IMG/VR virus record: IMGVR_UViG_3300032323_003671
Location: 9,263-73,262 of that record
Reading direction: 5' to 3' (one strand)
Source of the DNA: a virus
Length of the DNA: 64,000 nucleotides
Below, piece after piece: positions 28,160 to 46,403 of this stretch. The position numbers and the translations under genes were made by a program. The notes below the pieces were generated by a model that worked only from the letters and a program-made list of their open reading frames with translations, did not search any database and had not been told where the DNA came from. Numbering within the stretch: the first letter of the stretch is position 1; every line of letters starts with the position of its first letter.

Positions 28160-28912
28160 ATGAACGCAACAGAAAAAGAATTGCATCGCTTTTTAGGGGT
28201 AGCTGAAAAAATGTCTGGATACGATGGTATGGACTATGAAGGCGACCTTTCGTCTTTTGACGATATGGATTTCTTTGATGGTGGAGAAGGTATTAACGAC
28301 CCGATGTCTTTCGCTGATGGTGGAGCATCAACCGTTAACGTTTCTAACCCATACGTTATCCAATATGTTAACTCAACACCAGGTACTCTTACCGCTGTGT
28401 TGTTCGGTTACAACAACTTCTTTAATGATCCAACAGGTCAGTTCGGCAACCCAGTGGGTATCACCGTAACCAACTTGCAAGGTTCATCTTATGCTGCCTT
28501 GATTGGTCAGACTTCAAACAAAGCATTCCAAATTGGAAAATGGCGTTTTCAGTCTGCTTCAGCTGGTCAGTTGAGCCAAACACTTACTGTATCACATTTC
28601 GATGCGAACGGTAACCAATACTCAACTCCGTTGAACTTATCAATCATGCGTGATGCTTACCAGTTCCAGTCAGATATCTTGGATATCACCAAGGTAATCA
28701 CAGTGGACGGTAACACTCAAATCACGTTCCCATTGTTAGCGTTGACTACATTGGTAATCTCTATGTTCCCAGTAAGCGTTGTTAGTACTAAAGCAGTACT
28801 TAACGGTGGTATAGCTCTTAACAAAGCAGTTGCTCCACGTCTTTCTGGTAAAAACGTAGCACCAGTGATTATCAACACTAATCAAAGAGTTGGTGGCGTA
28901 ACCAAAGCGTAG
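28160..28912 (+). CDS. putative major capsid protein (beta-rich, possibly single jelly-roll) with acidic propeptide
   Basis: Strong high-expression codon bias (AAC/TTC/ATC), own terminator, near packaging ATPase, two paralogs; fold is inferred. Confidence 0.6.
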   Translation: MNATEKELHRFLGVAEKMSGYDGMDYEGDLSSFDDMDFFDGGEGINDPMSFADGGASTVNVSNPYVIQYVNSTPGTLTAVLFGYNNFFNDPTGQFGNPVGITVTNLQGSSYAALIGQTSNKAFQIGKWRFQSASAGQLSQTLTVSHFDANGNQYSTPLNLSIMRDAYQFQSDILDITKVITVDGNTQITFPLLALTTLVISMFPVSVVSTKAVLNGGIALNKAVAPRLSGKNVAPVIINTNQRVGGVTKA

Positions 28913-28936
28913 ATAAAAAACCGATCGCTATAAAAG

Positions 28937-28972
28937 AAAGGCAGAGTCGTATAACGTCTTTGCCTTTTTTTT
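28937..28972 (+). terminator. intrinsic terminator after putative MCP
   Basis: AAAGGCAGAG / CTTTGCCTTT hairpin plus T-run. Confidence 0.8.
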
Positions 28973-28987
28973 CTTAAAATCATTAGT

Positions 28988-29488
28988 ATGAGAAGAAATC
29001 CAGAACGTACAAATCAACTTCAACAGCGAGTAACTTTACTTGGTACTATTGCCAATGGTTCTACAGCAAAAGCTAGAAACCTATTGAAAAAATACAAGAT
29101 GCCAGATGCAGTTAATCATGAAGATTTAGAATATAAGCTAACTCAGTTATATCATCAGCAAGGTGATAAGATTGAGCTTGAAAAAGATTTGGCAATGATT
29201 CATCCTCACAAAGATTTTATCTTGAAATATTCTCAAATTAAAAAAGAAGAGCCAACAGATATGGAAGCACCTTTGGAAAAAACAAAGCAAGCCATTACAG
29301 AAACTAGTTCTTGTGCTTGTGGTTGTGGATCAATGGGATTTGATGGAGTAAAATCGAATGCATCAGGTTATTCAAATGCTGCTGGTGATGCCTCAGTAGC
29401 AAGCCCAATGGGTACAAATACAGGCATGATAGTTATCGGAGTTCTTGGGATGGTTACAGTCCTTGCATTAACTCTAAATAGACAATAA
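28988..29488 (+). CDS. tail-anchored virion membrane protein
   Basis: C-terminal TM; SNASG/SNAAG motifs; CACGC cluster. Confidence 0.65.
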   Translation: MRRNPERTNQLQQRVTLLGTIANGSTAKARNLLKKYKMPDAVNHEDLEYKLTQLYHQQGDKIELEKDLAMIHPHKDFILKYSQIKKEEPTDMEAPLEKTKQAITETSSCACGCGSMGFDGVKSNASGYSNAAGDASVASPMGTNTGMIVIGVLGMVTVLALTLNRQ

Positions 29489-29946
29489 TGGACGTAGTTT
29501 GCCTTGATAAGACACCAATTCTGATTCATAACACAGAGCATAAAAACTTTGTTGAAACAGATAAGTCAGTTCCGAAAGGAACAAAAATGACAGGTCAATT
29601 TATGAATGTTATTGGCAAAAGAAAAGGAAAAGAATTTACATATCGCCTATTCAAAGATGAAGATGGCGTAATTGTTTACCAAAATAAAGTAAAACCGATG
29701 GAAGTAACATTGAACGCAACAGGAGATGATGAAACAAGAGTTATCACATTCCCAAATGTACAAGACAATCTAAAAACGCATGCTATTGTTTCAGCAGGTG
29801 CAGCAGTAATTGCTTTTGCTGTGGCAAAACGCATGGGCAAAGCCAACAAAACAGCATTTTGGGCAGCGGCAGGTTCTGCAGTTGTAGGTTATGTAGCTGT
29901 AAGTATGATTGCAAAAAACCAAAGAATTAAATACCAAAAAATTTAG
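29488..29946 (+). CDS. membrane protein, two C-terminal TM helices
   Basis: Hydrophobic hairpin at C-terminus. Confidence 0.65.
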   Translation: MDVVCLDKTPILIHNTEHKNFVETDKSVPKGTKMTGQFMNVIGKRKGKEFTYRLFKDEDGVIVYQNKVKPMEVTLNATGDDETRVITFPNVQDNLKTHAIVSAGAAVIAFAVAKRMGKANKTAFWAAAGSAVVGYVAVSMIAKNQRIKYQKI

Positions 29947-29948
29947 TC

Positions 29949-31196
29949 ATGGAAGAAATTCAAAACTATAACCAGGTTGTCGTAAATCTTGATTCTGAAG
30001 GTGGTATTAGTGTGAACACACCTACAACTACTTTCGAGGAGGCGTTTATGGGTGAAGAATTTTCTGAAGCTCAGGGTAAAAGAAGAGCAAAGAAACAATC
30101 TCGCAAAATCCAAAAAACTACTGATAAGCGTGCAAGAAAAACTGCAAAACGTGGCAAAAAGTCTGATCGTCAAGAAGAAAGACTTGGCAGACGTGCTACT
30201 CGTAAGTCTTTAAAACAAGACATTCGTGATGAGCAAGCGGAACGCAGACAAACACGTAGGTCAAGAAGACCATCTGCAGTTGATCAAATCGTTTCAGCAA
30301 GGGAAAAAATGCGCCCAGAAGAAGAATACGTTGAAGAAACATTCCAAGAAGGTTTCAGAGATGAAGAATATGATAACAAATATTATCCTTCTGATGAGCA
30401 AGAAGAACAAGAATACAATGATTCTGAAGAATTAGATCAAGATTACCAAGATGATCAAGATTATCAAGATGAATCAGAGTATGAAGAAGACGAAGCTGAT
30501 TATGGTGATGATTCTGAATCCGAAGGTATGGATGAAGAAATTATCTATGACGAAGAGAATAATTTCACAGGAGAAATGAGTGGTAAAAAACCAGTTCCCA
30601 AAGAAATTATGGATTGTTGTATGAAAATCGAATGGAACGATGAACTAATTGCTCGCTTGAAAGATGCAAAGCAAAAAAATAGTTTGTCTGATGTTTCAAC
30701 GATGAGAATTCAAGATGTCATTGATGAGAAACAATCTCGCATGAATGAATTAAAGAGTTCACTTGATGATTATGCTAAACAATCTCCTGAGAATGCTGCA
30801 ATTGCGAAAGAAGCTAGAATGAAAGCTCGTAAAGAACGCATGAAAATTTGTCCTTATCCAATTCGCAAAAGACTTCGTGAACGTGGAATGAGTGATCAAC
30901 AAATAAATGAGTGGTGGACAAAAACAGGTCAACAAAAAATTGAGCAAAAAATGTCCAACGCTGCTGGTATGCCAAGCGTAAGTACTCGTGAAGAATCTAC
31001 AAGAATTGCAGATTTTGAAGAGCCAGTTTTGGACTATGATCAACCAAAAACACAAGTAGTTGATATTGATGAGAATGGAGAAGTAAAATCAAACATGACA
31101 GGTGAAAATAAAGACTTTTGGAAGTCTGTACTCATTGGTTCATTAGTCGGTTTTGCAGCTATTTATGCCATTAACAAATACAAATTGTTGAAATAA
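29949..31196 (+). CDS. tail-anchored protein with basic and acidic tracts (core/DNA-condensing candidate)
   Basis: FSEAQG, then Arg/Lys tract, then D/E/Y tract; C-terminal TM. Confidence 0.65.
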   Translation: MEEIQNYNQVVVNLDSEGGISVNTPTTTFEEAFMGEEFSEAQGKRRAKKQSRKIQKTTDKRARKTAKRGKKSDRQEERLGRRATRKSLKQDIRDEQAERRQTRRSRRPSAVDQIVSAREKMRPEEEYVEETFQEGFRDEEYDNKYYPSDEQEEQEYNDSEELDQDYQDDQDYQDESEYEEDEADYGDDSESEGMDEEIIYDEENNFTGEMSGKKPVPKEIMDCCMKIEWNDELIARLKDAKQKNSLSDVSTMRIQDVIDEKQSRMNELKSSLDDYAKQSPENAAIAKEARMKARKERMKICPYPIRKRLRERGMSDQQINEWWTKTGQQKIEQKMSNAAGMPSVSTREESTRIADFEEPVLDYDQPKTQVVDIDENGEVKSNMTGENKDFWKSVLIGSLVGFAAIYAINKYKLLK

Positions 31197-31468
31197 TGAC
31201 TATCTATCAAACACTTTACAATTCTGATAACAAGGAAGCTGAATATCAGAAAAGAGGTAAAACCTGGTACAAAAGAAAGAAAGGTTCAAGTGAGAATTGG
31301 TATAAAGTGGATTCTAAATATTTTTCCAATTTGAACTCTAAATTTAAAGATGCACCATTTCTTTACAACTATACTACTACTGCAAAAGTAGGAGCGGCAG
31401 CGTTATTGGTTTTAGCTGGTTACATCACTTATAAGAAGTTTTATGGACTACAAAAGATATCAAAATAA
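31196..31468 (+). CDS. small tail-anchored membrane protein
   Basis: C-terminal TM. Confidence 0.6.
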   Translation: MTIYQTLYNSDNKEAEYQKRGKTWYKRKKGSSENWYKVDSKYFSNLNSKFKDAPFLYNYTTTAKVGAAALLVLAGYITYKKFYGLQKISK

Positions 31469-32054
31469 GCATCGTAAAATGATGAATAAACTTGGTCAGA
31501 TTATCGTTACTGATAAATCAGACTTTGTTTCTATGCTTGATGCATCAAATACTCCTTACGCAAGTCAGGATGATTCTGATTTAATCAAGGCATTCATTAT
31601 TGATATTCCAGAAAATGATCAGTTGAAAGTTTTGACTTCATACATGCTTGAAGACAAACTTTCGGCAACTCCATCAGTAGATAATGAAGCAGTTTATGAA
31701 AACTACGAAACTATTTACAATTATTGGGATTTTGATGTTACTGAAGATTACATGAAATCAAATGCTGTAGGTGCTATTGCAGGTGCAGTAAGTGCAGGTG
31801 CAAACTTGACAAATACTGCATTACAAGGCCGACAACAGCGTAAATATGGTGCTACAATGGCAGCACAAAAGCAAGCTGAATCAAAAACAGAGCTTTTAAA
31901 AGGATTAATCGCTCAGAAACAAGCGGAGGCGGATAAAACTAAATCCATTGAAGAGAATAAATCCAAGACTAAAAGAAATCTGATTATTGCAGGATCTATT
32001 GTCGCAGGATTGACAATTGTTGGCGTGGCTATTTACTTTATAAGAAGAAAATGA
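31443..32054 (+). CDS. tail-anchored membrane protein
   Basis: KSNAVG followed by Gly/Ala segment; C-terminal TM plus RRK. Confidence 0.65.
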   Translation: MDYKRYQNKHRKMMNKLGQIIVTDKSDFVSMLDASNTPYASQDDSDLIKAFIIDIPENDQLKVLTSYMLEDKLSATPSVDNEAVYENYETIYNYWDFDVTEDYMKSNAVGAIAGAVSAGANLTNTALQGRQQRKYGATMAAQKQAESKTELLKGLIAQKQAEADKTKSIEENKSKTKRNLIIAGSIVAGLTIVGVAIYFIRRK

Positions 32055-32158
32055 GAAAGATTTTATCCATAATCGCTTTAGGTGGTGTCCTTTATGGTAT
32101 TTATAAAGGATATGAAAGAGCCAAGCGAACTCAGCAAAACGTAAAATTGCAATCATGA
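32051..32158 (+). CDS. 35-aa membrane peptide (not in ORF track)
   Basis: MRKILSIIALGGVLYGIYKG...; ATGA overlaps at both ends. Confidence 0.65.
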   Translation: MRKILSIIALGGVLYGIYKGYERAKRTQQNVKLQS

Positions 32159-32469
32159 AACTCAGTAAAAAACATTATATGATTGGTGGTGGATTGCTAC
32201 TCGCAAGTTTGGCTGCATATTACTATTTTGGTTCGGCAACAGTAAATCAATTTTACGAATTCGAAGTAGCTTCTAATCAATCAGGCCAAGGCATTTTCTA
32301 TAGCGTAGATATGCGTAAATATGAGAAAGCTAGAAATGAGTTTTCAAGGAACTTAACTCGTTCAGAAGCCAGAGAATTGATTAACTTAGTAAAACAAAAA
32401 AAATATAACCAACGATATGAAACCCTAATTAAAAAATGGGGATTGACATCGGTTAAATCTGAAAAATGA
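32155..32469 (+). CDS. N-anchored membrane protein
   Basis: N-terminal TM. Confidence 0.6.
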   Translation: MKLSKKHYMIGGGLLLASLAAYYYFGSATVNQFYEFEVASNQSGQGIFYSVDMRKYEKARNEFSRNLTRSEARELINLVKQKKYNQRYETLIKKWGLTSVKSEK

Positions 32470-32963
32470 AAAAGTCATATATCATAACAAAAGACGTAAA
32501 ATCTCCAGTTGTTGTAAGTAGCCAAGTCGCTCACAAACCAGCACAAGTAAGATTTCAGACATTTCGCAGAGGACAAATTGTTCAAGGTGAATTAAAACAT
32601 GCAGACAATAAGCCTGCATTTGTTTTGGTCGGACGTATGTGTGTCATTCCAGTAAATTGCGTAAAAGAATTGCAAGGAAAAGAAATTACATCAAATTTCA
32701 ATGATCAAGATGGCCAAAGCCAAGCACCTGCTCAAAAGAAAACAATTCAAGTAGAGAATCCAAAAATCAAATACATGGATGCCCTTTTGATTGGTGGTGT
32801 GGTTGGATATGCAGCAGTGCATGTAGCAATTCAGAAAGGTTATATTCAAAGTGAAGATCCCAAAGCAAAAATTTATGGTGCTTTAGGTGGCGCAGTGCTA
32901 GGCATGTACCTAGTATATAGAAATGTTAGTAGTCAAAAACCAAAAACAACTCCAAAACAATGA
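32466..32963 (+). CDS. membrane protein, two C-terminal TM helices
   Basis: Same architecture as 29488..29946. Confidence 0.65.
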   Translation: MKKSYIITKDVKSPVVVSSQVAHKPAQVRFQTFRRGQIVQGELKHADNKPAFVLVGRMCVIPVNCVKELQGKEITSNFNDQDGQSQAPAQKKTIQVENPKIKYMDALLIGGVVGYAAVHVAIQKGYIQSEDPKAKIYGALGGAVLGMYLVYRNVSSQKPKTTPKQ

Positions 32964-33325
32964 TTAGTGTAGAAACAGCTCGTCCAGTATATTCAGCTTT
33001 TGGTGGTAAGGATCTTACTCCAGAACAAAAGAAAGAACGTCAAAAAAAACGTATCGAAAAAGCAAAACAAATCTATCAAACTGCAAAAGAGACAGGTAGC
33101 TTAACAGCACTTGAAAATATTGCAATGAGAGCAGGTGCGCCATTAGCTCCCACAACTGATCCAAACTCAGGTGGTGGTGCAGGTGTTGGCACAAATGGTG
33201 ATCCAAAAGGAAAAGGATGGGCAGACCTATCTACTCCTTATAAAGTAGGTATCATTGGTGGCAGCCTTTTAGTTGTAGGTGTAGCTGTTTGGTATTTTGG
33301 ATTTAGAAACAAAGCAAAGAAGTAA
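32960..33325 (+). CDS. tail-anchored membrane protein
   Basis: N-terminus MISVETARPVYS shared with 45720; C-terminal TM. Confidence 0.65.
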   Translation: MISVETARPVYSAFGGKDLTPEQKKERQKKRIEKAKQIYQTAKETGSLTALENIAMRAGAPLAPTTDPNSGGGAGVGTNGDPKGKGWADLSTPYKVGIIGGSLLVVGVAVWYFGFRNKAKK

Positions 33326-34101
33326 TGGAACAAACTTGGGAAACGGATAAAAGATCGCTTTCCTTGAATGTTTCAATTAAATGTCAAGGCAAATGCAAAT
33401 TTCGTGTAGTTGCCACAGATTTTAATGTAAACACCAAGTATGCTGATCGTACAATTGAAGTAGATGGTTTTCGAACAATCTATTTGTCTTTTGTAACATC
33501 TCCAGAGAAAGTGAGAATCATTGTAACTCCAAAAGGAGATACAAACAACTATTTGGTGGATATCAAAGAGAAACCACTAAAGACATATCAGATTTATCTT
33601 GACGAACAAGCGAAGAAATTTGTAAAGTTTGCACAAGAATTTTCTAGTGTATGTGGATACTCTAAAGCAACACCACAAGGCCGATTTTTCAGAACTAAGG
33701 ACAAAGAGTTCTCAATTCGTTTTTATCCTTTCATTTCCCAAAATGGAAAAGTAAGCACCTCGCCTGCTAGAATTGGCCACAATACTGGTATTATTGACGT
33801 ATCTAAACTTCATTTTGATAGATATACAATACCAATGAGAATGATTATTCTTTTACACGAATTTTCTCATAAGTATCGTAATCCTAAGATCGATCTTGAA
33901 ATATCAAATGAGTTTGGGGCAGATTTAAACGCATTATACATATATTTGGGATTAGGTTACTCCAAGGTGGATGCAATCTTTGTTTTTGCTAATGTATTTT
34001 TGAAAGCTCAGACCGATCAGAATATAATGCGCATGCGTAAAATCATGGATTACATTCAGAAATTCGAAAATGGAGAAATCGCCAAACCATTGACAAATTA
34101 A
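33325..34101 (+). CDS. HExxH zinc metalloprotease (candidate maturation protease)
   Basis: ILLHEFSH ... NEFGAD zincin motif inside the structural operon. Confidence 0.7.
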   Translation: MEQTWETDKRSLSLNVSIKCQGKCKFRVVATDFNVNTKYADRTIEVDGFRTIYLSFVTSPEKVRIIVTPKGDTNNYLVDIKEKPLKTYQIYLDEQAKKFVKFAQEFSSVCGYSKATPQGRFFRTKDKEFSIRFYPFISQNGKVSTSPARIGHNTGIIDVSKLHFDRYTIPMRMIILLHEFSHKYRNPKIDLEISNEFGADLNALYIYLGLGYSKVDAIFVFANVFLKAQTDQNIMRMRKIMDYIQKFENGEIAKPLTN

Positions 34102-34102
34102 T

Positions 34103-35047
34103 ATGAATATCTGGGAAGAAGATATCAATGAATGGGATGGATCATCTTACGATGATTTGTTCGAAAATAATTCTCAAAACTTAGATGATTTTGAGAATGA
34201 ACCTGATATTATGGATATCGAGGATATCGATTTTAGTGGCATTAATGGAAAATCAACAAAAGAAAAACTTCGCAAAATTTCCAGAAAGACTGTTTCAGCT
34301 CGTATAGTTCCCAAAAAAAAAAGACTGAGTAGTGATAAGTCAATTTCAAGAAAAATAGTTGCGAAGCGAAATGTTGAATATGTTTTTAGTAAAAACAAAG
34401 GCCGACAAACCACCACTGAGATAAAACTCCCTGATAATCGTGAGGTTCTTATTAAAGGTGTAGATGAGTTTATTCTATCCCAAGGTAGTGATCAAGTAAA
34501 GAATATAGGTTATTACAAAGGCGAGAAACTTCGTGAGCTTGTCCTAATCATAAATAATACTACTCCAAACGACATTGACATTGAATTTTTCAATCTTTCA
34601 ACTCCTTTGGATTACATGTATGCAACTGCCAATAACTTAAACAATCTGATTCAAGTAGCTGGTGATAACAAGGTTAGTTACTCCGACATGTTGTTTAACT
34701 TATTAGCAAATCCAACAATTTTGCCAAACGCAAAATTTAGTTTATCTGGGCCTTTCAAAGATGCTCAGTATGCTCAACCAATGATTTTCAAGAATAAAAA
34801 TATTGCAGGTTTTGAAAAAGTACATCCAATTCAAAACTCCTTGAATATCGATATAGATCAGAATCAAAATGATATTGTTTATTGGGATATAGAACAGAGC
34901 TTAGGACGATTATTTTGTCCTGATGGTATGGACGTGATGCAATATAAAGTTCTTGCAGGCATGTCCGTTATTTTTGGCTTCTACTATAAGCAAATCAGTT
35001 TGAAAAAAGTATTTATCCCAGAACTTAGAAATAAAGGTATCCTATGA
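34103..35047 (+). CDS. capsid-protein paralog with acidic then basic N-terminal extension
   Basis: C-terminal half aligns by eye with 28160 (I.N.T, SY..L, D.DQNQ.DI, .DG). Confidence 0.55.
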   Translation: MNIWEEDINEWDGSSYDDLFENNSQNLDDFENEPDIMDIEDIDFSGINGKSTKEKLRKISRKTVSARIVPKKKRLSSDKSISRKIVAKRNVEYVFSKNKGRQTTTEIKLPDNREVLIKGVDEFILSQGSDQVKNIGYYKGEKLRELVLIINNTTPNDIDIEFFNLSTPLDYMYATANNLNNLIQVAGDNKVSYSDMLFNLLANPTILPNAKFSLSGPFKDAQYAQPMIFKNKNIAGFEKVHPIQNSLNIDIDQNQNDIVYWDIEQSLGRLFCPDGMDVMQYKVLAGMSVIFGFYYKQISLKKVFIPELRNKGIL

Positions 35048-37849: not shown

Positions 37850-37881
37850 AGTGCATTTTTATCATGAAAATGCACTTTTTT
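37850..37881 (+). terminator. intrinsic terminator
   Basis: AGTGCATTTT / AAAATGCACT hairpin plus T-run. Confidence 0.75.
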
Positions 37882-37898
37882 ATTTATATCAATTTTGT

Positions 37899-38232: not shown

Positions 38233-38333
38233 GAAAAACGTCTTTCTTAGATCTTTAAGGGCAAAGAATCCAATATGTCAATGTATAGTGGTTAATAGCA
38301 CCTTTGCCCTTATTTCTTATTTAATTTCTGTTT

Positions 38334-40862
38334 ATGTCAAGTAGGTCATTTGGTTTTTCTGGTGGAAATAGTGGCAGTGGCCCAGTTCCTCCAGGTGGTG
38401 TAGTAATATTAGGTGCAGGTGCAGGATCATCCGAAAGATGTGGTAATAGTAATTCCGCATCGGGTGCTTATGCAACTGGATTAGGTCGTTGTAATAATGC
38501 CTCAGGAGATTTTTCAACTATCAGTGGCGGTTATTCTCATTCTGCTAGTGGATGCTATGCTACAATCAGTGGCGGTTACAATAATAATGCTAGTGCCTAT
38601 TCAACTACAGTTGGAGGTGGTGCATTTAACACTTCATCAGCATTTGGTTCAACTGTATCAGGAGGAAGGGCAAACACAGCGAGTTCTTTGTATGGATACA
38701 TAGGTGCTGGTTTTGCGAATACTGTATCAGGAAACTATGCCTTAATAAGTGGCGGTAAATTTAATACATCTAGCTGTTATGCATCGGTTGTTGCAGGTGG
38801 ATATGGTAACGATGCTACAAATTGTTTTTCTGCAATAGGTGGCGGTTTAGACAACACATCTTCTGGTTGCGTTTCATTTGTTGGTGGCGGTAAACAAAAT
38901 AGTGCCAGTGGTCAATATAGTACTATTAGTGGTGGTTACAATAATAACTCTAATTGTTATTCTTCTTCAGTAAATGGTGGTGCATTTAACACTGCAAATT
39001 CTTTTTATTCAGTTGCAACTGGTGGTAGAGGAAATACAGCTTCTGGTTTTTCAGCTACAGTTAGTGGATATTTTAATACATCCTCAAATGACTATGCTGT
39101 TGTATCTGGTGGTGCATTTAATACATCGAATGGAGTTCTATCCGCAATATTAGGAGGTTTACAAAATACAGCATGTGCAAATTATTCGGTTATAACTGGC
39201 GGTAGACAGAATGGTGCAAATGGAGGATATTCATTTATAGGCAGCGGAAGACAAAATACAACCAGTGGTGATTATTCAGTAGTAACTGGTGGAACTTTAA
39301 ATCGTGCAACTGCTAATTGTAGTGCTGTAGTTGGTGGTGCATTTAATTGTGCTTCTGCAGACTTCGCATTTATTGGTGGCGGTGGACGGAATACGATATC
39401 TGCTTTTCAATCAACTATTTCAGGAGGTTATTGCAATAATATATGTTCTGGTTCTCAATGGTCTACAATTGCAGGCGGTTGTTGCAATTTAGTTGATCCT
39501 AATTCATCAGTTTCAACAATTGGTGGGGGTTCATGTAATGAAACAGGTAATGCTTATTCAACAATAAGTGGAGGATACAAAAACTTTGCGTTTGGTATTT
39601 ATTCAAAAATTGGTGGTGGTAGACAAAATAGTGCCAGTGGTCAATATAGTACTATTGGTGGCGGTGGTGGTAATCCTGTTATTGGTTACGGAGGCAACGC
39701 AGCCTTTGGTGGTCATTCAACTATTGGTGGAGGACATAGTAACAGTACTTCAGGATATTATGCTACCATTGGAGGTGGTTATTGTAACCAAGCAACAACT
39801 ACTTCAGCAACAATAAATGGCGGTAATCGAAATACAGCCTCTTCCTACGCATCATTTATTGGTAGTGGTACTCGGAACACAGCATCGGGAGATAATTCTA
39901 TTGTGGTTGGTGGTTTTCTAAATCAATCTACTGGTGAGCAAGCTAGTATAGTTGGGGGTAGATTTAATTCTGCAACAAGCCCATATAGTTCAATTGTTAA
40001 TGGTTTAGCAAATTCAATTCAAACTACAGACCCTAATTTCCTTGGTGGTAATTACTATTCTCATATTAGTTCAGGTTGTTGTAATACAATATGTACATTT
40101 ATAAATGATTCAAATCCTCTATTACTTAATAGTTATTATGATTCTTCTTTTATTGGAGGTGGTAGAAATAATATAATTCGTAACACAATTAGCTCATATT
40201 ATGGAAGTTGTTTTAATACTTTTTCTTTATCTCATGTCATTTCTGGAGGTAATTTAAATAGAATTGATATTAATACACTTCCGTTTCTTGGAAATTTTAG
40301 ATATTATCCATCTACAATATCAGGTGGATATAATAACATTATCCAAATGCCTAATTTTGGTATTTTAAATGGATCTACAATTGGTGGTGGATTATGTAAC
40401 TCAATTGATTCTGCTTCTTATGCTACAATTGGAGGTGGTAGATCTAATTGTATGAGTTATATAATGGGATCTCCTGACTATTCAACAATATCAGGTGGTT
40501 ATGCCAATTCTTCTGTTAATTCTTGTAATGCTATTTCAGGTGGTGCATTCAACACAATTTCAGGAAGTAGATCAGTAATTGGTGGAGGTAATAATAATAC
40601 AATTTCAGCATATACAAGTTTTATCGGTGGTGGTGTTATTAATACAATTTCAGGAACATACTTATCTGGTATCTTAGGTGGTGGATTTAACACAATTAGT
40701 GGTTACAATAATGCTTTTATAGTTGGTTCAAATATTGTAGCTGATAGATCATGTACAACATTTGTGAATAACCTTTCAATAAAAAATATTCCAACAAGTG
40801 CTGCTGGTTTACCTTCAGGATCAGTATGGGCAAATGGTACTATTTTAGAAATTGTACCGTAA
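38334..40862 (+). CDS. Gly-rich repeat fibre/adhesin (YadA-head-like beta-roll)
   Basis: Dozens of ~14-aa S.I.GG..N.AS repeats, Cys-rich. Confidence 0.75.
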   Translation: MSSRSFGFSGGNSGSGPVPPGGVVILGAGAGSSERCGNSNSASGAYATGLGRCNNASGDFSTISGGYSHSASGCYATISGGYNNNASAYSTTVGGGAFNTSSAFGSTVSGGRANTASSLYGYIGAGFANTVSGNYALISGGKFNTSSCYASVVAGGYGNDATNCFSAIGGGLDNTSSGCVSFVGGGKQNSASGQYSTISGGYNNNSNCYSSSVNGGAFNTANSFYSVATGGRGNTASGFSATVSGYFNTSSNDYAVVSGGAFNTSNGVLSAILGGLQNTACANYSVITGGRQNGANGGYSFIGSGRQNTTSGDYSVVTGGTLNRATANCSAVVGGAFNCASADFAFIGGGGRNTISAFQSTISGGYCNNICSGSQWSTIAGGCCNLVDPNSSVSTIGGGSCNETGNAYSTISGGYKNFAFGIYSKIGGGRQNSASGQYSTIGGGGGNPVIGYGGNAAFGGHSTIGGGHSNSTSGYYATIGGGYCNQATTTSATINGGNRNTASSYASFIGSGTRNTASGDNSIVVGGFLNQSTGEQASIVGGRFNSATSPYSSIVNGLANSIQTTDPNFLGGNYYSHISSGCCNTICTFINDSNPLLLNSYYDSSFIGGGRNNIIRNTISSYYGSCFNTFSLSHVISGGNLNRIDINTLPFLGNFRYYPSTISGGYNNIIQMPNFGILNGSTIGGGLCNSIDSASYATIGGGRSNCMSYIMGSPDYSTISGGYANSSVNSCNAISGGAFNTISGSRSVIGGGNNNTISAYTSFIGGGVINTISGTYLSGILGGGFNTISGYNNAFIVGSNIVADRSCTTFVNNLSIKNIPTSAAGLPSGSVWANGTILEIVP

Positions 40863-40873
40863 AACATTGTATA

Positions 40874-41338
40874 ATGAAACTAAGTAATAATTTTTGGTTA
40901 ATTGAATTCACTAGAAGTGATTTAGCTAAACGCCTTGGCATTAGTAATCAACCTACCAAAGCGCATTTAGAAAATATCAAATTACTTTGTGAAAAGGTTT
41001 TAGAACCGATTCGAGAACACTTTGATACTCCTATTTATATTAGTTCGGGATATAGATCGATAGAACTAAATAAGAAAACTCCTGGTGCATCTACTACTTC
41101 TCAACATTCAAGTGGAGAGGCAGCAGATATCGATATGGATGGTAGCATCATTTCAAATGCGGATGTCTTTAATTACATAAAAGAAAATCTAGAGTTTGAT
41201 CAACTTATCTGGGAATTTGGTACAGATACAAATCCTGATTGGGTTCATGTATCCTTTGAATCCTCAGGTAAACAACGTAAACAAATTCTTAAAGCGGTTA
41301 AATCAGGCGGAAAGAAATTTTATAGAAAGTTTAAATAA
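40874..41338 (+). CDS. M15A peptidase (endolysin)
   Basis: SSGYRS..LN, SQH..GEAADI, WVHVS; ATG 40874 preferred. Confidence 0.9.
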   Translation: MKLSNNFWLIEFTRSDLAKRLGISNQPTKAHLENIKLLCEKVLEPIREHFDTPIYISSGYRSIELNKKTPGASTTSQHSSGEAADIDMDGSIISNADVFNYIKENLEFDQLIWEFGTDTNPDWVHVSFESSGKQRKQILKAVKSGGKKFYRKFK

Positions 41339-41368
41339 AATACTACTTTTATGTTCAAATAATAAAAA

Positions 41369-41701
41369 ATGGCAAACGAAACTCAAACTTGGAACACTAT
41401 TCACATCTTTGGTTATGGTGAAACTCAAATCATCGGCAAAGATTTAAATAAAAAAGTACCTACATCTGTTTTGACTACAGTTCAAGCGGTTGTGGATAAT
41501 GTATATTCTTTCAAACCAGAAGGAAACACAGCGACAGAAGAATATCATGCTGTAAATATCTTTAACACTATGTTTGCTGATTGGCAAACAAAACAACAAG
41601 GCGTTCAGGGTTGGAGAGTTCAATATGCTGATCTTGATAGTGCGGCAATTGAAGCACTTGCAGCAGAAATCGTTGCATACGTAGCACCAGTTACAGAGTA
41701 A
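41369..41701 (+). CDS. hypothetical protein
   Basis: 110-aa ORF. Confidence 0.65.
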   Translation: MANETQTWNTIHIFGYGETQIIGKDLNKKVPTSVLTTVQAVVDNVYSFKPEGNTATEEYHAVNIFNTMFADWQTKQQGVQGWRVQYADLDSAAIEALAAEIVAYVAPVTE

Positions 41702-41726
41702 TAAACTACACATCAAATAAATAAGT

Positions 41727-42671
41727 ATGAAAAACATCATTTTCAAAATTGATGGTGGGATTGGTAAATCCATCATGGCAACTGCAGTTTGTGAGGCAAT
41801 TAAGAAACAATATCCAAACGATAAATTAATTGTTATCACAGCCTATCCAGACGTATTTCTTTGCAATCCAAATGTAGATAAGTGTTATACACATAACAAC
41901 TTATTCTACTTTTATCAGGATTTTGTAGACAATAAGTCTATTCGTGCATTCTTGCATGATCCTTATTTAGAGACATCTTTCATTAAAAGAGAGTGTCATT
42001 TAATTGAAACATGGTGTTCAATGTTTTCTATTAAATACAATGGAGAACAACCAAAATTATATTTGACTGATAGAGAGGTTAATTTCTATGCAAATCAATT
42101 TGCATCTGACAAGCCAATTTTCTTGATTCAAACAAATGGGGGTGGTGCAGAACAAGGAATTAAATATTCTTGGTCTAGAGACATTCCTCAACAAGCTGCA
42201 CAACAAATTGTCAATCATTATGCAAGTAATGGTTTCAATGTAGTGCATATTCGTAGAGAAGACCAATTAGCATTACAGAATACCACTCCAGTATCTGCAG
42301 ATTTTCGTGCAATTGCATCTTTGATAAAATTGTCAAGTGTTCGTCTATTCATGGATAGTTTTGCTCAACACGCAGCAGCAGCACTTGAATTACCAAGTAC
42401 TGTTCTTTGGATTGCAAATACTCCAGAACAATTTGGATACAATATCCATAGCAATATCATTGCGAACAAAGAAACTGCAACTCCAGAATTGAAAAATTCA
42501 GTATTTTCTAGATACAATATTGCAGGTGGCCTTTTAGAATTCCCATACAACTCTGAATCAGAAATTTTCGACTTAGAAAAAGTTGTAAAGTCTATCGATG
42601 ATTTTATCAATCCAGTAGAAACTGAAATTGAAGAAGTACAATTACCGAAGAAAAAATTAAATTCTAAATAA
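41727..42671 (+). CDS. GT9-like (GT-B) glycosyltransferase
   Basis: GGIGK.IMATAV..AIKKQYP, NPNVD, MDSF..HAAAAL.LPS.VLW. Confidence 0.75.
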   Translation: MKNIIFKIDGGIGKSIMATAVCEAIKKQYPNDKLIVITAYPDVFLCNPNVDKCYTHNNLFYFYQDFVDNKSIRAFLHDPYLETSFIKRECHLIETWCSMFSIKYNGEQPKLYLTDREVNFYANQFASDKPIFLIQTNGGGAEQGIKYSWSRDIPQQAAQQIVNHYASNGFNVVHIRREDQLALQNTTPVSADFRAIASLIKLSSVRLFMDSFAQHAAAALELPSTVLWIANTPEQFGYNIHSNIIANKETATPELKNSVFSRYNIAGGLLEFPYNSESEIFDLEKVVKSIDDFINPVETEIEEVQLPKKKLNSK

Positions 42672-42677
42672 TTCGTT

Positions 42678-43502
42678 ATGCCGAAAAAGATTTTTTTTCA
42701 GTCTAGCATGCCTAGATCGGGTTCTACTATTTTACAAAATATCGTAGGTCAAAATCCTAACTTTTATGTTACGCCAACATCAGGTGTTTTGGAATTAGTT
42801 TTTGGTGCTAGAGCCAACTATACAACTTCTCCAGAATTCAAAGCGCAAGATTCTGAATTGATGGCCAAAGCATTTAAGAATTTTTGTGTTCAAGGAATAA
42901 ATGGTTTTTACGATGGTATTACTGACAAACCTTATGTTTTAGACAAAAGCAGAGGTTGGGGAGTTTATCGACCTTTTTTAGATGAATTCTATCCTGATCC
43001 TAAAATCATTTGCATGGTTAGGGATTTAAGAAGTGTTTTGGCTTCTTATGAAAAAATATATCGAAAGTCTCAACTGAAACATGATCCTATTCGTGATGAT
43101 GCCTCAGCTAGGGGTACTACAGTACACAAACGTATTGATGAATGGGTAAATCCTCAGAATACGATTGGTCGTGCAGTAGAGCGTATTTTTGAAATGATTC
43201 GACTTGGATATGATGATAAGATTCTATTTGTAAAATTTGAGGATCTAGCACTTTATCCAGACTTGGAGATGAAACGTATCTATAACTACTTAGGTTTAGA
43301 TTATTTCGAACATGATTTTGATAATATTCAACAAATTACCAAAGAAGACGATGCAGTTTACGGACTGACATCCGATTTACATACAATTAAGCCAAGATTA
43401 GAACCTTTGAAAAAGGATTTCAAAGAAATTCTTGGTAAAGATATTTGTGATTGGATTCAAAATAATTATTCCTGGTATCAAGAAAAATTCAATTATAGAT
43501 AA
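42678..43502 (+). CDS. PAPS-dependent sulfotransferase
   Basis: 5'-PSB MPRSGST, DKSR, 3'-PB VRD.RSVLAS, VKFEDL. Confidence 0.9.
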   Translation: MPKKIFFQSSMPRSGSTILQNIVGQNPNFYVTPTSGVLELVFGARANYTTSPEFKAQDSELMAKAFKNFCVQGINGFYDGITDKPYVLDKSRGWGVYRPFLDEFYPDPKIICMVRDLRSVLASYEKIYRKSQLKHDPIRDDASARGTTVHKRIDEWVNPQNTIGRAVERIFEMIRLGYDDKILFVKFEDLALYPDLEMKRIYNYLGLDYFEHDFDNIQQITKEDDAVYGLTSDLHTIKPRLEPLKKDFKEILGKDICDWIQNNYSWYQEKFNYR

Positions 43503-43536
43503 TTACTATCTTTGAAAGAATTAAATACTTAACACT

Positions 43537-43803
43537 ATGGGAGTTTCTCAAAACATTTGGACATATAAATTATCAGCAGGTACATTGAACATTGATTCAA
43601 ACTATGGATTACTTGTAATTTCAATCATACTTGAATCTGGTACAGGTACAGTTACGGGGACTGCCCTTTTAAATGGTGTGGCATCAACTCCAATAGATCT
43701 TGCAGTAGGTGTTCCTTTGACTATTTCAACAGATGGAAACACAATTCTTGGAGACGTAAGTATTACTACAACAGGTGTAGTTTCTATTGTCGGTAGGTCT
43801 TAG
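43537..43803 (+). CDS. small beta-rich structural protein, paralog of 47744
   Basis: QNIWTY.L....IDS.YGL..IS..L.SG shared; TATCTTTG at 43507. Confidence 0.7.
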   Translation: MGVSQNIWTYKLSAGTLNIDSNYGLLVISIILESGTGTVTGTALLNGVASTPIDLAVGVPLTISTDGNTILGDVSITTTGVVSIVGRS

Positions 43804-43918
43804 TGGTTAATTTTGAACAATTTAATTTCTGAATATTTCAATTCAGATGCTTTCGTATTTTCTATATTTGAAGAATAAATGTATTGAATTGTTTATTAAT
43901 TAATTAAAACCGAAAAAA
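43801..43918 (+). promoter_or_regulatory. 118-bp promoter/leader element, copy 2
   Basis: Colinear with 37899-38016; TATATTTG at 43863. Confidence 0.75.
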
Positions 43919-44296
43919 ATGCCAACAGTACAAGGAACAAACTATCTTCGAGTAGCTACCACAGCAGTATTAGCAGATAGCACATACGATCTTACTTTGA
44001 AAGATAACAATGGTAACGTTTTCCCAAAAACAACCATTGAAATTAACACAACATTGGGTGATGGAGAGTTCAATCTTCCTTCAATTGCCTCTTTAGGTGC
44101 AGCAGCACAAAATTGTCAGGTAGTTATCGTAGTGGATAACTCTACAAATGATGTAATTGTTGATCCTGCATTAACCGATAAAATCGGTGGTTTAGCAGCA
44201 GGCGCACCATACACTATTGCGGCAGGTGCAGCAGGTCAAAATATAGTTCTATATCCAGTGGATGGAACTACATGGGGATTTGTTTACACAGCATAA
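43919..44296 (+). CDS. highly expressed beta-rich structural (decoration/spike-base) protein
   Basis: Own promoter and terminator; resembles N-terminal domain of 35044 (I..(D/N)TTLG......P). Confidence 0.6.
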   Translation: MPTVQGTNYLRVATTAVLADSTYDLTLKDNNGNVFPKTTIEINTTLGDGEFNLPSIASLGAAAQNCQVVIVVDNSTNDVIVDPALTDKIGGLAAGAPYTIAAGAAGQNIVLYPVDGTTWGFVYTA

Positions 44297-44316
44297 TCTA
44301 AACATTCTAGAAAGCA

Positions 44317-44346
44317 AAGGTAGGTAGCAGAAATGTTACCTACCTT
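44317..44346 (+). terminator. hairpin terminator
   Basis: AAGGTAGGTAGCA-GAAA-TGTTACCTACCTT. Confidence 0.7.
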
Positions 44347-44360
44347 ATAATTCATTTTAC

Positions 44361-45170
44361 ATGAAGAACAAGAACATTCTTACTATTGCAGGTATTTTGA
44401 TTGCTGGTTCGGCAATTTATTTTGGTATTAAATGGTATCAAAAAAATCAAGAAGAAAAAAATCAATTACCTAAGCCAGATCCAGTTGTTACTCCTTCTGG
44501 TAATGGTACGGATTTAGCTCCGAGCGATGTGGAAAATCCATTCTTAAATATTGACGAAGTAAAAGCGTTTCAAGATTGGATGGATGCAAAGCACCCTAAT
44601 TGGGTAAATGGTAAGAATTTAAATAAAGGTGCAGGATATGGTAATTTTGGCCCAGCTACAAAGGCAGCCTTTACTACTTATGGTGCTGAATACCTTAAAT
44701 CATTACAACCAGCACCTGCTCAATTGTCTGAGAATCAGAAAAAAGATATTCAGACTATCATGGCTCATGGAACTGGAGATAAATCAAAAGAATCATATTT
44801 AAAAGCAACAATTGCAAAGTATCCTAACTACACTGCTAATTGGGCTAATTCAATTCGTAGAAGAATAGAAACTAATGGCCAACAAGGAACAACTTTCCTT
44901 TTTGCTAATCAGATTTATGAATCTTTTTCTGGAAACAGAATCTATCGTGGCACTTTGCTAGGTAAAAAGCCAGAAGTAAAGGCTAACGCTAAATTGCGTA
45001 GAGAATCTAAATGGAATACAAGCACTCAACCTGTAGGTGTAGGTGCAGACTTAGGTAAAGTCAAAGGTTATTTTTACAATAAAAATGACAAGGCTTTATT
45101 TGTCTATGTTCCAGACCAAAATAAATCCCTAACAAATAAATGGATTTGGGTAGGATCAATAAAATTTTAA
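44361..45170 (+). CDS. membrane-anchored protein with peptidoglycan-binding-like domain
   Basis: N-terminal TM; VKAFQ.W...G.FGPATKAAF motif. Confidence 0.6.
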   Translation: MKNKNILTIAGILIAGSAIYFGIKWYQKNQEEKNQLPKPDPVVTPSGNGTDLAPSDVENPFLNIDEVKAFQDWMDAKHPNWVNGKNLNKGAGYGNFGPATKAAFTTYGAEYLKSLQPAPAQLSENQKKDIQTIMAHGTGDKSKESYLKATIAKYPNYTANWANSIRRRIETNGQQGTTFLFANQIYESFSGNRIYRGTLLGKKPEVKANAKLRRESKWNTSTQPVGVGADLGKVKGYFYNKNDKALFVYVPDQNKSLTNKWIWVGSIKF

Positions 45171-45171
45171 T

Positions 45172-45723
45172 ATGAGAGAGCAAGAAATTAGACCAGTTCG
45201 TTTTATGGTGGCCAATGGATTTTCTGAGTTACGTCCGCCAACAATTTATGGTGATGTATCTCCGATGTCCGCATTTGATGGAGAACCTATCAATGATACA
45301 GAATTCCCATTCACTGAGGAAATTATGCTTGAATTTTCAAATGCCGATGGTAAAGCTAGACGTGCTAAAAGACGTTCTGCTCGATCAGATAAAAAGCAAG
45401 GTAAGGCTAGTGCCAAAAAAGACCGCCAATCAGATAGATCAGCTGCTAGAAAACAGCGTGCTGATATTCGTGAAAGAAGAATGTCTTTGAAAGAAAAAGA
45501 ACAAGCAACACAAGCGGAAGTTGCTAAGAAAATCGGTGAACAATCTCCTGAAGAAATTGCTTTGATGAATCAAATTGCTAGTCAAGGTACTACCAAAAGT
45601 GAAACCGCACCAAAAGTAGGCATGAGTAAAGGTCTTAAAATTGGCCTTATTGCTGGATCCGTTGCTGTTTTGACAATTGTAGTCATTGCCATTGTTAAAT
45701 CCCGTAAAAAATCTAAAAAATGA
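45172..45723 (+). CDS. tail-anchored basic protein
   Basis: FSNADG, then Arg/Lys tract; C-terminal TM. Confidence 0.65.
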   Translation: MREQEIRPVRFMVANGFSELRPPTIYGDVSPMSAFDGEPINDTEFPFTEEIMLEFSNADGKARRAKRRSARSDKKQGKASAKKDRQSDRSAARKQRADIRERRMSLKEKEQATQAEVAKKIGEQSPEEIALMNQIASQGTTKSETAPKVGMSKGLKIGLIAGSVAVLTIVVIAIVKSRKKSKK

Positions 45724-46403
45724 TTGAAGTAAACACAGCTCGTCCAGTATATTCTAATGCTATAGGTGATAAATTAAAAAGATCACCAGAAAAAAAAGCC
45801 AAAACTCAGGAGAATAGAGCCGAACGTGCGGAAAAAAGAAGTGGTCGTAAGGCAAAAAGAAATGCCAAGAAACTTATCCGCATGGAAAATAAAGGCAAAA
45901 AGAAGTTTTTCTATCCTTTAACAAAGATTTTTGGCAAAAAGAAAAAGTACAAAGATGGATCAACAATTGAAGTTCCTGCCGAAAATACAGTTGTAGTTTC
46001 AACCAAAGATGGTAAAACAGCATCTTTGGATAAAACAGAGATTGCAAAAGCACTCAATATTCCTGAAAGCCAGGTTACGCCAGCAAAAGTTCAAGAAGTT
46101 GTTGTGAATGTACCACAAGCAAGTGCAGGCCCAGCAGCAAACGAAACAGGAACTCCAGTAGGTGAGCCAGTTCTTGCAATTCCAATAAAAGATGAAGATG
46201 TAATCATTACAGACGATGGTTCAGCGTATTTATCTGATGATACTCAATCTCAGGATGAAAAATTGAAAAATGTTGCCGATGATGATAAAGAAGCACAGAA
46301 AAAAATTAAAATCGGAAAAATTTTATTGATTTCTGGTGTTGTAATCGTTGTTTTAGGTGCAGTCGTTTACTTTATGAATAAAGATTCAAAAGCTGAAAAA
46401 TAA
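45720..46403 (+). CDS. tail-anchored basic protein
   Basis: MIEVNTARPVYSNAIG, then Lys/Arg tract; C-terminal TM. Confidence 0.65.
   Translation: MIEVNTARPVYSNAIGDKLKRSPEKKAKTQENRAERAEKRSGRKAKRNAKKLIRMENKGKKKFFYPLTKIFGKKKKYKDGSTIEVPAENTVVVSTKDGKTASLDKTEIAKALNIPESQVTPAKVQEVVVNVPQASAGPAANETGTPVGEPVLAIPIKDEDVIITDDGSAYLSDDTQSQDEKLKNVADDDKEAQKKIKIGKILLISGVVIVVLGAVVYFMNKDSKAEK

Follow-up and report, generated by a model that had tools for sequence, protein, structure and literature searches.

A recurrent S-N-A-x-G-type motif in virion-module proteins from an uncultured lineage of Bacteroidota viruses and a candidate metallopeptidase that may cleave at it

Results

Locus and motif-bearing module

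A stretch of 64,000 nucleotides (hereafter, the window) was analysed, which corresponds to bases 9263-73262 of the 73,262-bp IMG/VR record IMGVR_UViG_3300032323_003671 (48% complete according to CheckV). The window is AT-rich (GC 0.27-0.39) and densely coding, and a total of 103 non-overlapping open reading frames (ORFs) were kept, comprising 19,854 amino acids (aa). A short motif centred on S-N-A-x-G recurs in the proteins of a module whose upstream edge is marked by a putative packaging ATPase and which includes membrane proteins, two paralogous predicted jelly-roll capsid proteins and, encoded between the latter, a candidate maturation protease with an HExxH signature (Table 1; proteins are named below after the first position of their genes). 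This motif is a short linear signal under selection at the protein level, located in disordered linkers of the virion-module proteins.

Table 1. Motif-bearing module and other genes noted in the window (TM, transmembrane; AF2, AlphaFold2; APS, adenosine 5′-phosphosulfate)
Position	Strand	Length (aa)	Feature	Motif sites	Basis or context
25255..26094	+	279	Putative FtsK/HerA-type packaging ATPase		Upstream edge of the motif-bearing module
28160..28912	+	250	Predicted jelly-roll capsid protein 1; acidic disordered leader, residues 1-61	MSGYDG (28214-28228), MSFADG (28307-28321)	Alignment, AF2, Foldseek
28988..29488	+	166	Tail-anchored membrane protein; Cys-rich stretch, then two sites	SNASG (29354-29368), SNAAG (29372-29386)	TM helix from residue 141
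29488..29946	+	152	Membrane protein; site between N-terminal domain and two TM helices	LNATG (29710-29724)	Alignment
29949..31196	+	415	Polyprotein-like core/membrane protein, four sites	SEAQG (30063-30077), NNFTG (30558-30572), SNAAG (30954-30968), SNMTG (31089-31103)	Family of nine
31443..32054	+	203	Tail-anchored protein	SNAVG (31758-31772)	Alignment of 12 sequences
32466..32963	+	165	Membrane protein	SNFND, degenerate (32691-32705)	Orthologue alignment
32960..33325	+	121	Tail-anchored protein; 11-residue N-terminal leader ends in the site	SAFGG (32993-33007)	Alignment
33325..34101	+	258	Candidate maturation protease; gene between the two paralogous jelly-roll capsid genes		HExxH, AF2
34103..35047	+	314	Predicted jelly-roll capsid protein 2, paralogue of 28160	SGING (34235-34249)	hhalign, alignment A3
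45172..45723	+	183	Tail-anchored basic protein	SAFDG (45268-45282), SNADG (45337-45351)	Alignment
45720..46403	+	227	Tail-anchored basic protein; N-terminal leader ends in the site	SNAIG (45753-45767)	Alignment
2098..2376			Small protein with Acb2/Tad1 hairpin domain		E 5.5e-7
9932..20811		1137, 1473, 843	Three large polyvalent proteins		ART-PolyVal, LPD1 and LPD11 domains
42678..43502	+		Sulfotransferase		Pfam Sulfotransfer_3, E 7e-19
50093..50836	-		Gene adjoining the APS kinase		Weak nucleotidyltransferase-like match
50836..51303	-		APS kinase		E 3e-19
53289..53792	-		Bacterial RNA polymerase alpha C-terminal domain		E 1.5e-16

Motif occurrence in the window

A previous reading made from the letters of the window and their translations (the sequence-only reading) had listed 14 instances of the pattern S-[NAE]-[AFM]-x-G, and each of them was found in its stated ORF. 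The pattern as written fitted 10 of the 14, while LNATG, NNFTG, SGYDG and SGING were looser, each of these four lying at an orthologously conserved site. Beyond that list, SFADG was detected in the 28160 protein, together with the degenerate SNFND of the 32466 protein, whose orthologues have SNAxG at that place, the window total being at least 15 sites in 10 proteins, both jelly-roll proteins included. Regarding the strict form SNAxG, 6 occurrences were found in 5 proteins, the expected number being 0.34-0.5, and none of 2000 within-protein shuffles reached 6 (maximum of 4). All 6 fell within the 6,110 aa of the + strand ORFs at 28000-46800 (between 28988 and 46403), whereas the remaining 13,744 aa had no occurrence (Fisher P = 8.5e-4). 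SNA.G ranked only about 12th among the same-shaped patterns (abc.d) of the window alone (P = 1.6e-5), so the window by itself is not decisive; YVH.L, in 4 proteins, and EYV.S, in 5, were more enriched there. Moreover, the 15 window sites were encoded with five Ser, both Asn, three Ala and two Gly codons. Such a variation of codons between sites points to selection on the protein and not on a DNA element, and an explanation at the DNA level was thus rejected.

Motif occurrence in related loci

Viral contigs were scanned with the 33325 protein and the ATPase, resulting in 17 related loci at 40-84% identity, with 0-5 SNAxG each, all on + strand ORFs, and nine further loci from genome bins had 0-3 each. 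Ten loci were compared around the ATPase, L014 being dropped as near-identical to L013. SNAxG was absent from 29,527 aa upstream of the ATPase and present 20 times in 28,383 aa downstream of it (P = 6e-7), and the relaxed pattern S[NAS][AF]xG appeared once upstream and 45 times downstream, although these counts are not independent because of orthology. Thus, an equal motif frequency in non-structural ORFs, which the sequence-only reading had named as evidence against its proposal, was not observed, the motif being confined to the module downstream of the ATPase.

A pooled set of 648 ORFs (136,650 aa; L008, L011 and L014 dropped as redundant) contained 53 SNA.G, compared to 2.7 expected, distributed in 10 BLAST clusters. 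Of the 1390 patterns shared by 6 or more clusters, only the low-complexity PTP.P exceeded SNA.G in the ratio of observed to expected occurrences, and SYA.G, the variant of the capsid leaders, was fifth. An iterated position matrix converged on the logo [D/E]-[G/D/E]-[Y/M/F]-S-[N>S,Y]-A-x-G. Across 8 non-redundant loci, this matrix had 43 matches downstream of the ATPase (22,253 aa) and none upstream of it (22,693 aa), having been trained on the same data that it scanned. Furthermore, in the relative G002 (L029/L030; 97 kb, 84% complete), all 5 SNAxG lay in 4 of its 161 ORFs, at 16.1-25.6 kb, adjoining the HExxH gene at 26987.

The strict motif was rarer in 39 further distant loci, where the 33325 homologue has 32-39% identity, with 17 SNAxG in 240,344 aa, 16 of them preceded by Y or F at residue -1 and the remaining one by H. 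These loci had 235,778 aa on the + strand and 4,566 on the - strand, and the strand control was uninformative for them. An unbiased pattern discovery in the 23 distant loci without strict SNAxG was dominated by Ser/Gly/Thr-rich fibre repeats; more could be learned there from the profile scan and from comparing the capsid N-termini. In the distant clades, in which the capsid protein is very divergent, the shifted form Φ-x-[N/S]-A-x-G was found instead. Moreover, new motif sites appeared at non-orthologous places in different genomes.

Consensus and context of the sites

The consensus of the motif in this clade is [D/E]-x-[Y/F/M]-S-[N>S,G,A,E]-[A>F,I,V,L,M]-x-G, which is relaxed to the shifted form mentioned above in the distant clades. 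Position 3 of the motif was always small or hydrophobic (A, F, M, V, I or L), and position 2 was mostly Asn, with S, G, A, E, K, Q and Y tolerated. Ser was the most conserved residue after Gly, appearing in 112 of 130 unique sites. In the family alignments, the motif formed a conserved island amid variable, mostly acidic linkers, so that, as to conservation in homologues, the sites do align between orthologues.

The sites were found at domain boundaries, namely before the first jelly-roll strand, at junctions between acidic and basic tracts and ahead of TM anchors. The profile set comprised 132 matches in 93 proteins, 80 of which had a predicted TM helix. A TM helix started within 30 aa of 49 of the 132 sites, in agreement with the proposal that the motif separates a soluble part from its TM anchor, and 14 sites lay within the first 25 residues. 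The companion proposal, that it separates an acidic leader from a basic tract, was also often borne out, as in the first site of the 29949 protein, with charges of -2 to -6 upstream and +6 to +13 downstream.

Sites in the motif-bearing proteins

Both predicted capsid proteins carry the motif in their leaders. In the 28160 protein, the second site lies directly ahead of the first beta strand, and residues M18, S19, G20, A52 and G54 were invariant in the 11 sequences of the family alignment (A2). The AF2 model shows a beta-sandwich core at residues 62-207, with a leader below 50 in predicted local distance difference test (pLDDT) and an overall value of only 58. Foldseek returned picornavirus, comovirus and bromovirus coat proteins as well as carbohydrate-binding modules (CBMs), all of them weak (E about 1e-3), and no usable match was obtained for this protein in Protein Atlas. 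Its homologue in G002 (37% identity) has FSNAIG at the first site, and 28 distinct full-length homologues from distant clades mostly have two sites, typically F-x-N-A-D-G and F-M-S-A-N-G, with the second one 8-12 residues ahead of the first strand. The 34103 protein presents an acidic leader, the site (DIDFSGINGK), a basic tract and the fold, in that order. Its family has the form D-I-D-F-S-x-Φ-x-G-K, where D43, S45 and G49 were invariant in 13 of 13 sequences, being the sole invariant positions of the first 100 residues besides M1. The two families were related by hhalign (A2 vs. A3; probability of 93.9, E 1.6e-7, 94 columns), and the two paralogous genes flank membrane-protein genes and the HExxH gene.

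Four sites were found in the 29949 protein, in which SEAQG lies between an acidic leader and a basic tract, and SNMTG directly ahead of the TM anchor. The nine members of its family have 2-5 sites each at corresponding places: one at the junction of the leader with the basic run, one or two between internal domains, and one ahead of the C-terminal TM helix. The first of them follows the form FEEAFGxF-S[ENQY]A[QKR]G-[KR]GRARRKKR, the net charges mentioned above being approximate and referring to the 25 aa on either side.

Regarding the tail-anchored and other membrane proteins, the sites of the 28988 protein are placed 12 aa ahead of the C-terminal TM helix, and the motif was found at the last site in most of 13 orthologous sequences. 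These sites (window 29300-29390) lie within a Cys-rich, repeat-like stretch (SSCACGCG…), with SNACGC repeated in relatives, which could be a metal- or disulfide-bonded cluster beside the membrane. The site column of the 29488 protein was L/M-[NG]-A-[TND]-[GSA] in 9 of 9 sequences, and this protein is a weaker member of the set because Ser is absent from its site. For the 31443 protein, the column read S-N-[A/F/V/I/S]-x-[G...] in 12 sequences with variable flanks, and a conserved Gly/Ala-rich hydrophobic segment, AVGAIAGAVSAG, follows SNAVG directly. The stretch from the motif onwards (31758-31830) is AVGAIAGAVSAGANL, with IAGxVGxGxxL in relatives; its exposure through cleavage would yield something similar to a fusion peptide or a membrane-active one. 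At the linker position where the 32466 protein has its degenerate site, the orthologues have SNATG, SNAEG, SNANG, SNASG, SNLDG, SSFTG or SAFNG, so that 9 of 12 follow S-[N/S/A]-[A/F/L]-x-G.

The N-termini of the 32960 and 45720 proteins are paralogous, sharing an 11-residue leader that ends in the motif. The site of the former was kept in the three aligned sequences (SAFGG, SNVTG and SNAGG), and that of the latter was present in L002 (SNANG) and absent from L004. In the 45172 protein, the basic tract KARRAKRRSARSDKK follows SNADG; among its relatives, L002 has both sites and L003 the second. A second recurrent element was also observed ahead of the C-terminal TM helix, D-D-[K/T]-I-L-G-M-P-K in G002 (at least 8 tail-anchored proteins, ORFs at 18.7-27.0 kb), with G-M-S-K-G-L-K-I-G as its counterpart near the TM helix of the 45172 family. 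This element may be the first motif of the sequence-only reading or a shared membrane-insertion module.

Candidate maturation protease

The 33325 protein, which the sequence-only reading had not named as the enzyme, is predicted to consist of an N-terminal beta-sandwich (residues 1-85) and a C-terminal zincin-like domain with HEFSH (H178, E179 and H182), E196 and D200. These five residues were invariant in an alignment of 12 sequences at 38-74% identity (A1). A profile search against 1.84 billion representatives (E ≤ 1e-3) gave 713 family members, each standing for a cluster at 50% identity. Of the 150 best matches, 135 were full-length, all of them with HExxH and with the same five residues 100% conserved. 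A word-indexed search returned 634 proteins, none of which had a Pfam domain or any name besides 'hypothetical protein'. Moreover, the gene was present in every motif-bearing related locus examined, down to 32-40% identity.

A confident two-domain model was obtained with AF2 (pLDDT of 90.7), in which HEFSH (residues 178-182) would lie in helix 169-180 and just past it, and E196 or D200 could act as the third metal ligand. The C-terminal domain (residues 112-256) had only two structural matches, BepA/YfgC of the family M48 (6sar; Z of 7.5 over 116 aa, root-mean-square deviation of 4.4) and the putative Zn peptidase 3c37 (Z of 6.4-6.5), while the N-terminal 85 residues formed a jelly-roll- or CBM-like sandwich with many middling matches. 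Foldseek also returned M60-type metalloproteases with weak E-values, and the feature matches in Protein Atlas, to be taken as leads only, were a DUF4344 metallopeptidase (0.88) and a cluster with Peptidase_M48 in 25% of its members (0.80). As in the M48 proteins BepA/YfgC, HtpX and Ste24, the HExxH sits in a helix of a similar helical domain, with a downstream candidate for the acidic ligand. However, 33325 has no Peptidase_M48 match in Pfam and no sequence match in the PDB, lacks TM segments and carries the fused jelly-roll-like beta-sandwich. It was not filed in M48 because no match to the PF01435 profile was found. Most likely, it represents a predicted new family of zincin metallopeptidases fused to a beta-sandwich domain.

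A prediction of a complex between the 33325 family (A1) and residues 28-72 from the 34103 family (A3) scored 0.01 compared to a mark of 0.32, which gives no verdict either way. The 33325 protein itself contains I-S-N-E-F-G-A-D (33904-33918) in a lower-confidence loop after the HExxH, spanning the invariant E196; this could be a ligand loop or, more speculatively, a pseudo-substrate. The only other HExxH of the window was HEWGH, at residue 448 of the 1473-aa polyvalent protein at 13349. As an alternative protease it was provisionally set aside, since Pfam matched nothing in this segment at E ≤ 1 and no homologue appeared in the incomplete records of 5 relatives with the motif.

Lineage

As far as can be judged from the genes, the lineage is characterised by two putative, paralogous single jelly-roll capsid proteins, an HerA/FtsK-like ATPase and many tail-anchored membrane proteins, with the hallmark genes of tailed phages undetected. 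In particular, no terminase, portal, HK97-type capsid or tail gene was found in the window by Pfam (the 103 ORFs and 13 further ORFs of the remaining 9.7 kb of the record) or by PHROGs (40 ORFs). Likewise, PHROGs gave no terminase, portal, HK97 capsid, tail tube or sheath family among 57 late-strand ORFs of G002, and the Pfam terminase model had no match in 5 relatives. PHROGs had zero matches for the motif-bearing proteins, the ATPase and the 33325 protein, and Pfam had none for the capsid-like proteins. The ATPase was 67-84% identical in 11 related loci, with weak Pfam matches under the curated cut-offs (DUF87/HerA, E 2e-4; TrwB, E 1e-3) and nothing relevant among PDB sequences. The 24086 protein (388 aa), encoded upstream of it, was considered as a double jelly-roll capsid protein and rejected, since its alignment was acidic and Pro-rich, with a helical or disordered look.

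The bins of metagenome-assembled genomes with relatives were labelled Saprospira, Saprospiraceae, Flavobacteriaceae and Bacteroidota, and the few archaeal and clostridial labels were taken for mis-binning. These appear to be uncultured, tailless viruses of Bacteroidota, forming an abundant clade. The records containing relatives ranged from 57 to 170 kb, the longest being of 146-170 kb. Two single jelly-roll capsid proteins together with an FtsK/HerA ATPase make up the virion module of Sphaerolipoviridae-like viruses. The layout seen here, with two predicted jelly-roll paralogues and a putative ATPase near their genes, may be akin to theirs, but in records of 57-170 kb and with weak capsid-fold and ATPase matches.

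Other genes

Further Pfam matches in the window corresponded to replication and defence-related genes, the three polyvalent proteins, cell-wall hydrolases (SLT, VanY and M15), a weak holin (E 1.4e-4), the sulfotransferase and the APS kinase. The homologues of 50836 and 50093 in G002 have 40-49% identity. This set suggests a virus-driven supply of 3′-phosphoadenosine 5′-phosphosulfate and the sulfation of some target, for which the Tyr-rich acidic capsid leaders would be a conceivable substrate. Polyvalent proteins are usually delivered with the DNA and are an unusual cargo for a putatively tailless virus. Finally, the hairpin domain of the protein at 2098-2376 suggests a sponge for cyclic-nucleotide immune signals, and the protein at 53289-53792 may serve transcription takeover.

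Discussion

The restriction of the motif to one module, its placement at boundaries, the presence of up to 5 sites per protein and the conserved HExxH gene in the module are best explained by cleavage. We give about even chances to the reading that the motif marks maturation cleavage sites in the virion proteins, which would be cut by the 33325 product. Such an enzyme, a zinc metallopeptidase encoded at 33325-34101 between the two capsid genes, would strip both capsid proteins of their acidic leaders and cut the polyprotein-like core proteins at domain boundaries. It would also separate strongly basic tracts, which presumably bind DNA, from the acidic leaders neutralising them, and would clip soluble domains from the membrane anchors that carried them into the particle. 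The scissile bond may lie between positions 2 and 3 (S-N↓A-x-G), since a small or hydrophobic residue at position 3 would suit the P1′ pocket of a zincin.

Several observations weigh against this reading. A strongly basic downstream tract (charge of at least +5) was found at only 24 of the 132 sites, so the unmasking of DNA-condensing tracts put forward in the sequence-only reading fits a minority of them. The mean upstream charge was -2.66 at the sites compared to 0.00 at random positions of the same proteins, a figure that is partly circular because the profile itself favours D/E at -3 and -2. The motif counts across relatives are inflated by shared ancestry. As regards the enzyme, the structural match of 33325 is middling (Z of 7.5, under the level that is clearly meaningful for the tool), no Pfam peptidase matched it at E ≤ 1, with only DUF4932 at E 0.043, under its cut-off, and the best match of its profile (A1) to PDB sequences was only E 0.3. 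Moreover, the tailless architecture with an internal membrane is itself a deduction from records that are 37-84% complete according to CheckV. Searches of the ATPase and of the 33325 protein by tblastn against 50,697 phage records gave zero matches, and thus no cultured relative. Finally, a conserved core with variable flanks in a disordered context is equally expected of a docking site.

The latter corresponds to the strongest alternative, which we consider unlikely although well worth weighing, namely that the motif is a docking or incorporation signal that is not cleaved. It would bind one partner (the inner face of the shell, a scaffold or the beta-sandwich of 33325), thus recruiting membrane and core proteins into the particle and tying the membrane to the shell. 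The motif occurs in nearly all tail-anchored proteins of the module, in keeping with the TM helix predicted in 80 of the 93 motif-bearing proteins, and an aromatic residue or Met at -1 and Gly at +4 would suit a turn that binds in a pocket. However, several copies per protein at domain and charge boundaries are more like processing sites, and so are the extreme N-terminal sites after an 11-residue leader. Furthermore, the motif in the capsid proteins themselves, twice in 28160, would be awkward if the capsid were the receptor, and a conserved enzyme-like gene lies within the module.

The possibility that the sites serve a different enzyme, either a host protease or one that modifies Ser (the sulfotransferase at 42678, the APS kinase at 50836 or a transferase-like protein such as 41727), is regarded as improbable. 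That Ser is second only to Gly in conservation (112 of 130 unique sites) agrees with a modification, as do the Pfam matches to Sulfotransfer_3 (E 7e-19) and APS kinase (E 3e-19) and the homologues of the latter and of its neighbour 50093 in the distant relative G002. However, the distant clades often replace Ser (F-L-N-A-T-G, Y-N-N-A-D-G and M-Y-F-A-G-G) while A-x-G stays, which makes a modification of Ser unlikely as the common function. In addition, only 1 of the 17 related loci had a match to the sulfotransferase (BLASTP, E ≤ 1e-4; most loci end before that region), which was not among the window proteins matched in G002 either. The general O-glycosylation signal of Bacteroidota is D-[S/T]-[A/I/L/V/M/T], which the motif does not fit, having Y/M/F/K/T rather than D at -1 and N/S/Y at +1. 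Signal peptidase would need a hydrophobic segment upstream of the sites, and none is found there.

Self-cleavage through the chemistry of Asn, with a succinimide formed at that residue, is very improbable. The capsid proteins of nodaviruses and tetraviruses cleave themselves at Asn↓Ala or Asn↓Phe, and the commonest core here is S-N-A, with N-F and N-M variants and with capsid proteins among the carriers. However, Asn is dispensable, as orthologous sites have S, G, A, E, K, Q, Y or F in its place, and this tolerance of position 2 favours recognition by an enzyme; the sites also lie in disordered linkers of many unrelated proteins instead of sharing a single folded catalytic context. A motif without a function of its own, arising from chance, composition or inherited paralogy, is just as hard to credit, despite the rank of SNA.G (about 12th) in the window, the clear paralogy of the 32960 and 45720 N-termini and the sharing of BLAST clusters by several carriers, given the 53 occurrences compared to 2.7 expected in 10 clusters, the absence from about 30,000 aa of neighbouring genes of the same composition, the invariant columns inside otherwise unalignable leaders across clades and the new sites at non-orthologous places.

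Returning to maturation cleavage, the sequence-only reading had drawn an analogy with adenovirus pVII and with poxvirus AG/X processing, which holds as a functional likeness; no adenain-like (clan CE) or other cysteine protease was found by Pfam in the 73-kb record (48% complete), and the motif is unlike the consensus sites of either virus group. In adenoviruses, adenain cuts pVII, pVI, pre-Mu and other precursors at a short consensus that contains Gly. The likeness lies in one short consensus, with a hydrophobic residue a few positions upstream and a Gly, being reused across capsid, core and membrane-lytic precursors, in the predicted jelly-roll capsid and in the proposed removal of leaders from basic DNA-condensing proteins. 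The differences are that adenain is a cysteine protease and the candidate here an HExxH zinc enzyme, that S-N-A-x-G does not resemble the adenovirus consensus, that the host is bacterial and that the capsid proteins are predicted to be single, not double, jelly rolls.

In poxviruses, the cysteine protease I7L cuts at Ala-Gly↓X, and G1L is a metalloprotease of the M16/M44 type with an inverted HxxEH. Core precursors processed at a short motif of small residues and a metalloprotease in core condensation would be shared features, but the HExxH with a putative M48-like fold found here has no sequence relationship with G1L. The proteases of phages T4 (gp21) and phiKZ (gp175) are serine proteases of tailed phages with HK97-fold capsids, which cut after Glu and remove short N-terminal leaders that target proteins to the capsid. 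Here too, short leaders (11 residues in 32960 and 45720) end in the consensus, and internal proteins and capsid share one motif, but the tailed-phage families named above were missing from the PHROGs matches of the 40 window ORFs and the 57 late-strand ORFs of G002. C-terminal sorting signals of the sortase or exosortase type combine a motif with a TM helix and a basic tail. This tripartite layout is found at some sites (28988, 29949 and 46407-like), but many others are N-terminal or internal, with a TM helix within 30 aa at only 49 of 132 and 14 among the first 25 residues; Pfam gave no sortase-like gene for the window or the remaining 9.7 kb. Overall, the system belongs to none of the adenovirus, poxvirus, T4 or phiKZ types of maturation, as enzyme class, motif and lineage all differ.

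The statement that such processing is atypical of the characterised tailless phages agrees with a review on membrane-containing phages from 2019 (PMC6356626), in whose main text the terms protease, proteoly-, cleav- and propeptide have 0 occurrences. Likewise, no description of this clade, of the motif or of a metalloprotease in tailless phages was found in literature searches judged by titles and abstract openings.

A wider proposal, doubtful as a whole, is that these large viruses of Bacteroidota form an undescribed, widespread lineage, whose particle would have an internal membrane enclosed by two single jelly-roll capsid proteins. Their maturation would be similar to that of adenoviruses or poxvirus cores and carried out by a zinc metalloprotease of a new family encoded in the capsid module. 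Under this proposal, the precursors would reach the viral membrane as tail-anchored proteins and would then be clipped at S-N↓A-x-G, thus freeing DNA-condensing basic peptides from the acidic leaders that neutralise them. In the case of 31443, the clipping would expose a Gly/Ala-rich hydrophobic N-terminus (AVGAIAGAV...), possibly a peptide that fuses or disrupts membranes at entry.

That capsid and core proteins mature through sequence-specific proteolysis is textbook knowledge for adenoviruses, poxviruses, African swine fever virus and tailed phages. The observation of the motif is robust, as are its conservation, its context and the conserved catalytic-type residues of 33325, while the occurrence of cleavage, its position and the enzyme responsible make up a plausible and testable proposal. 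If the sites are cleaved, a lineage of jelly-roll bacterial viruses would share the maturation logic of eukaryotic jelly-roll viruses with an unrelated enzyme, which would bear on how often proteolytic maturation arose independently. The 258-aa protein and the 5-residue site make a testable pair of enzyme and substrate, and a family of more than 700 clusters at 50% identity, annotated only as 'hypothetical', gains a candidate role. Moreover, the motif provides a signature that flags virion proteins in an abundant group of uncharacterised viruses whose structural genes are missed by profile libraries.

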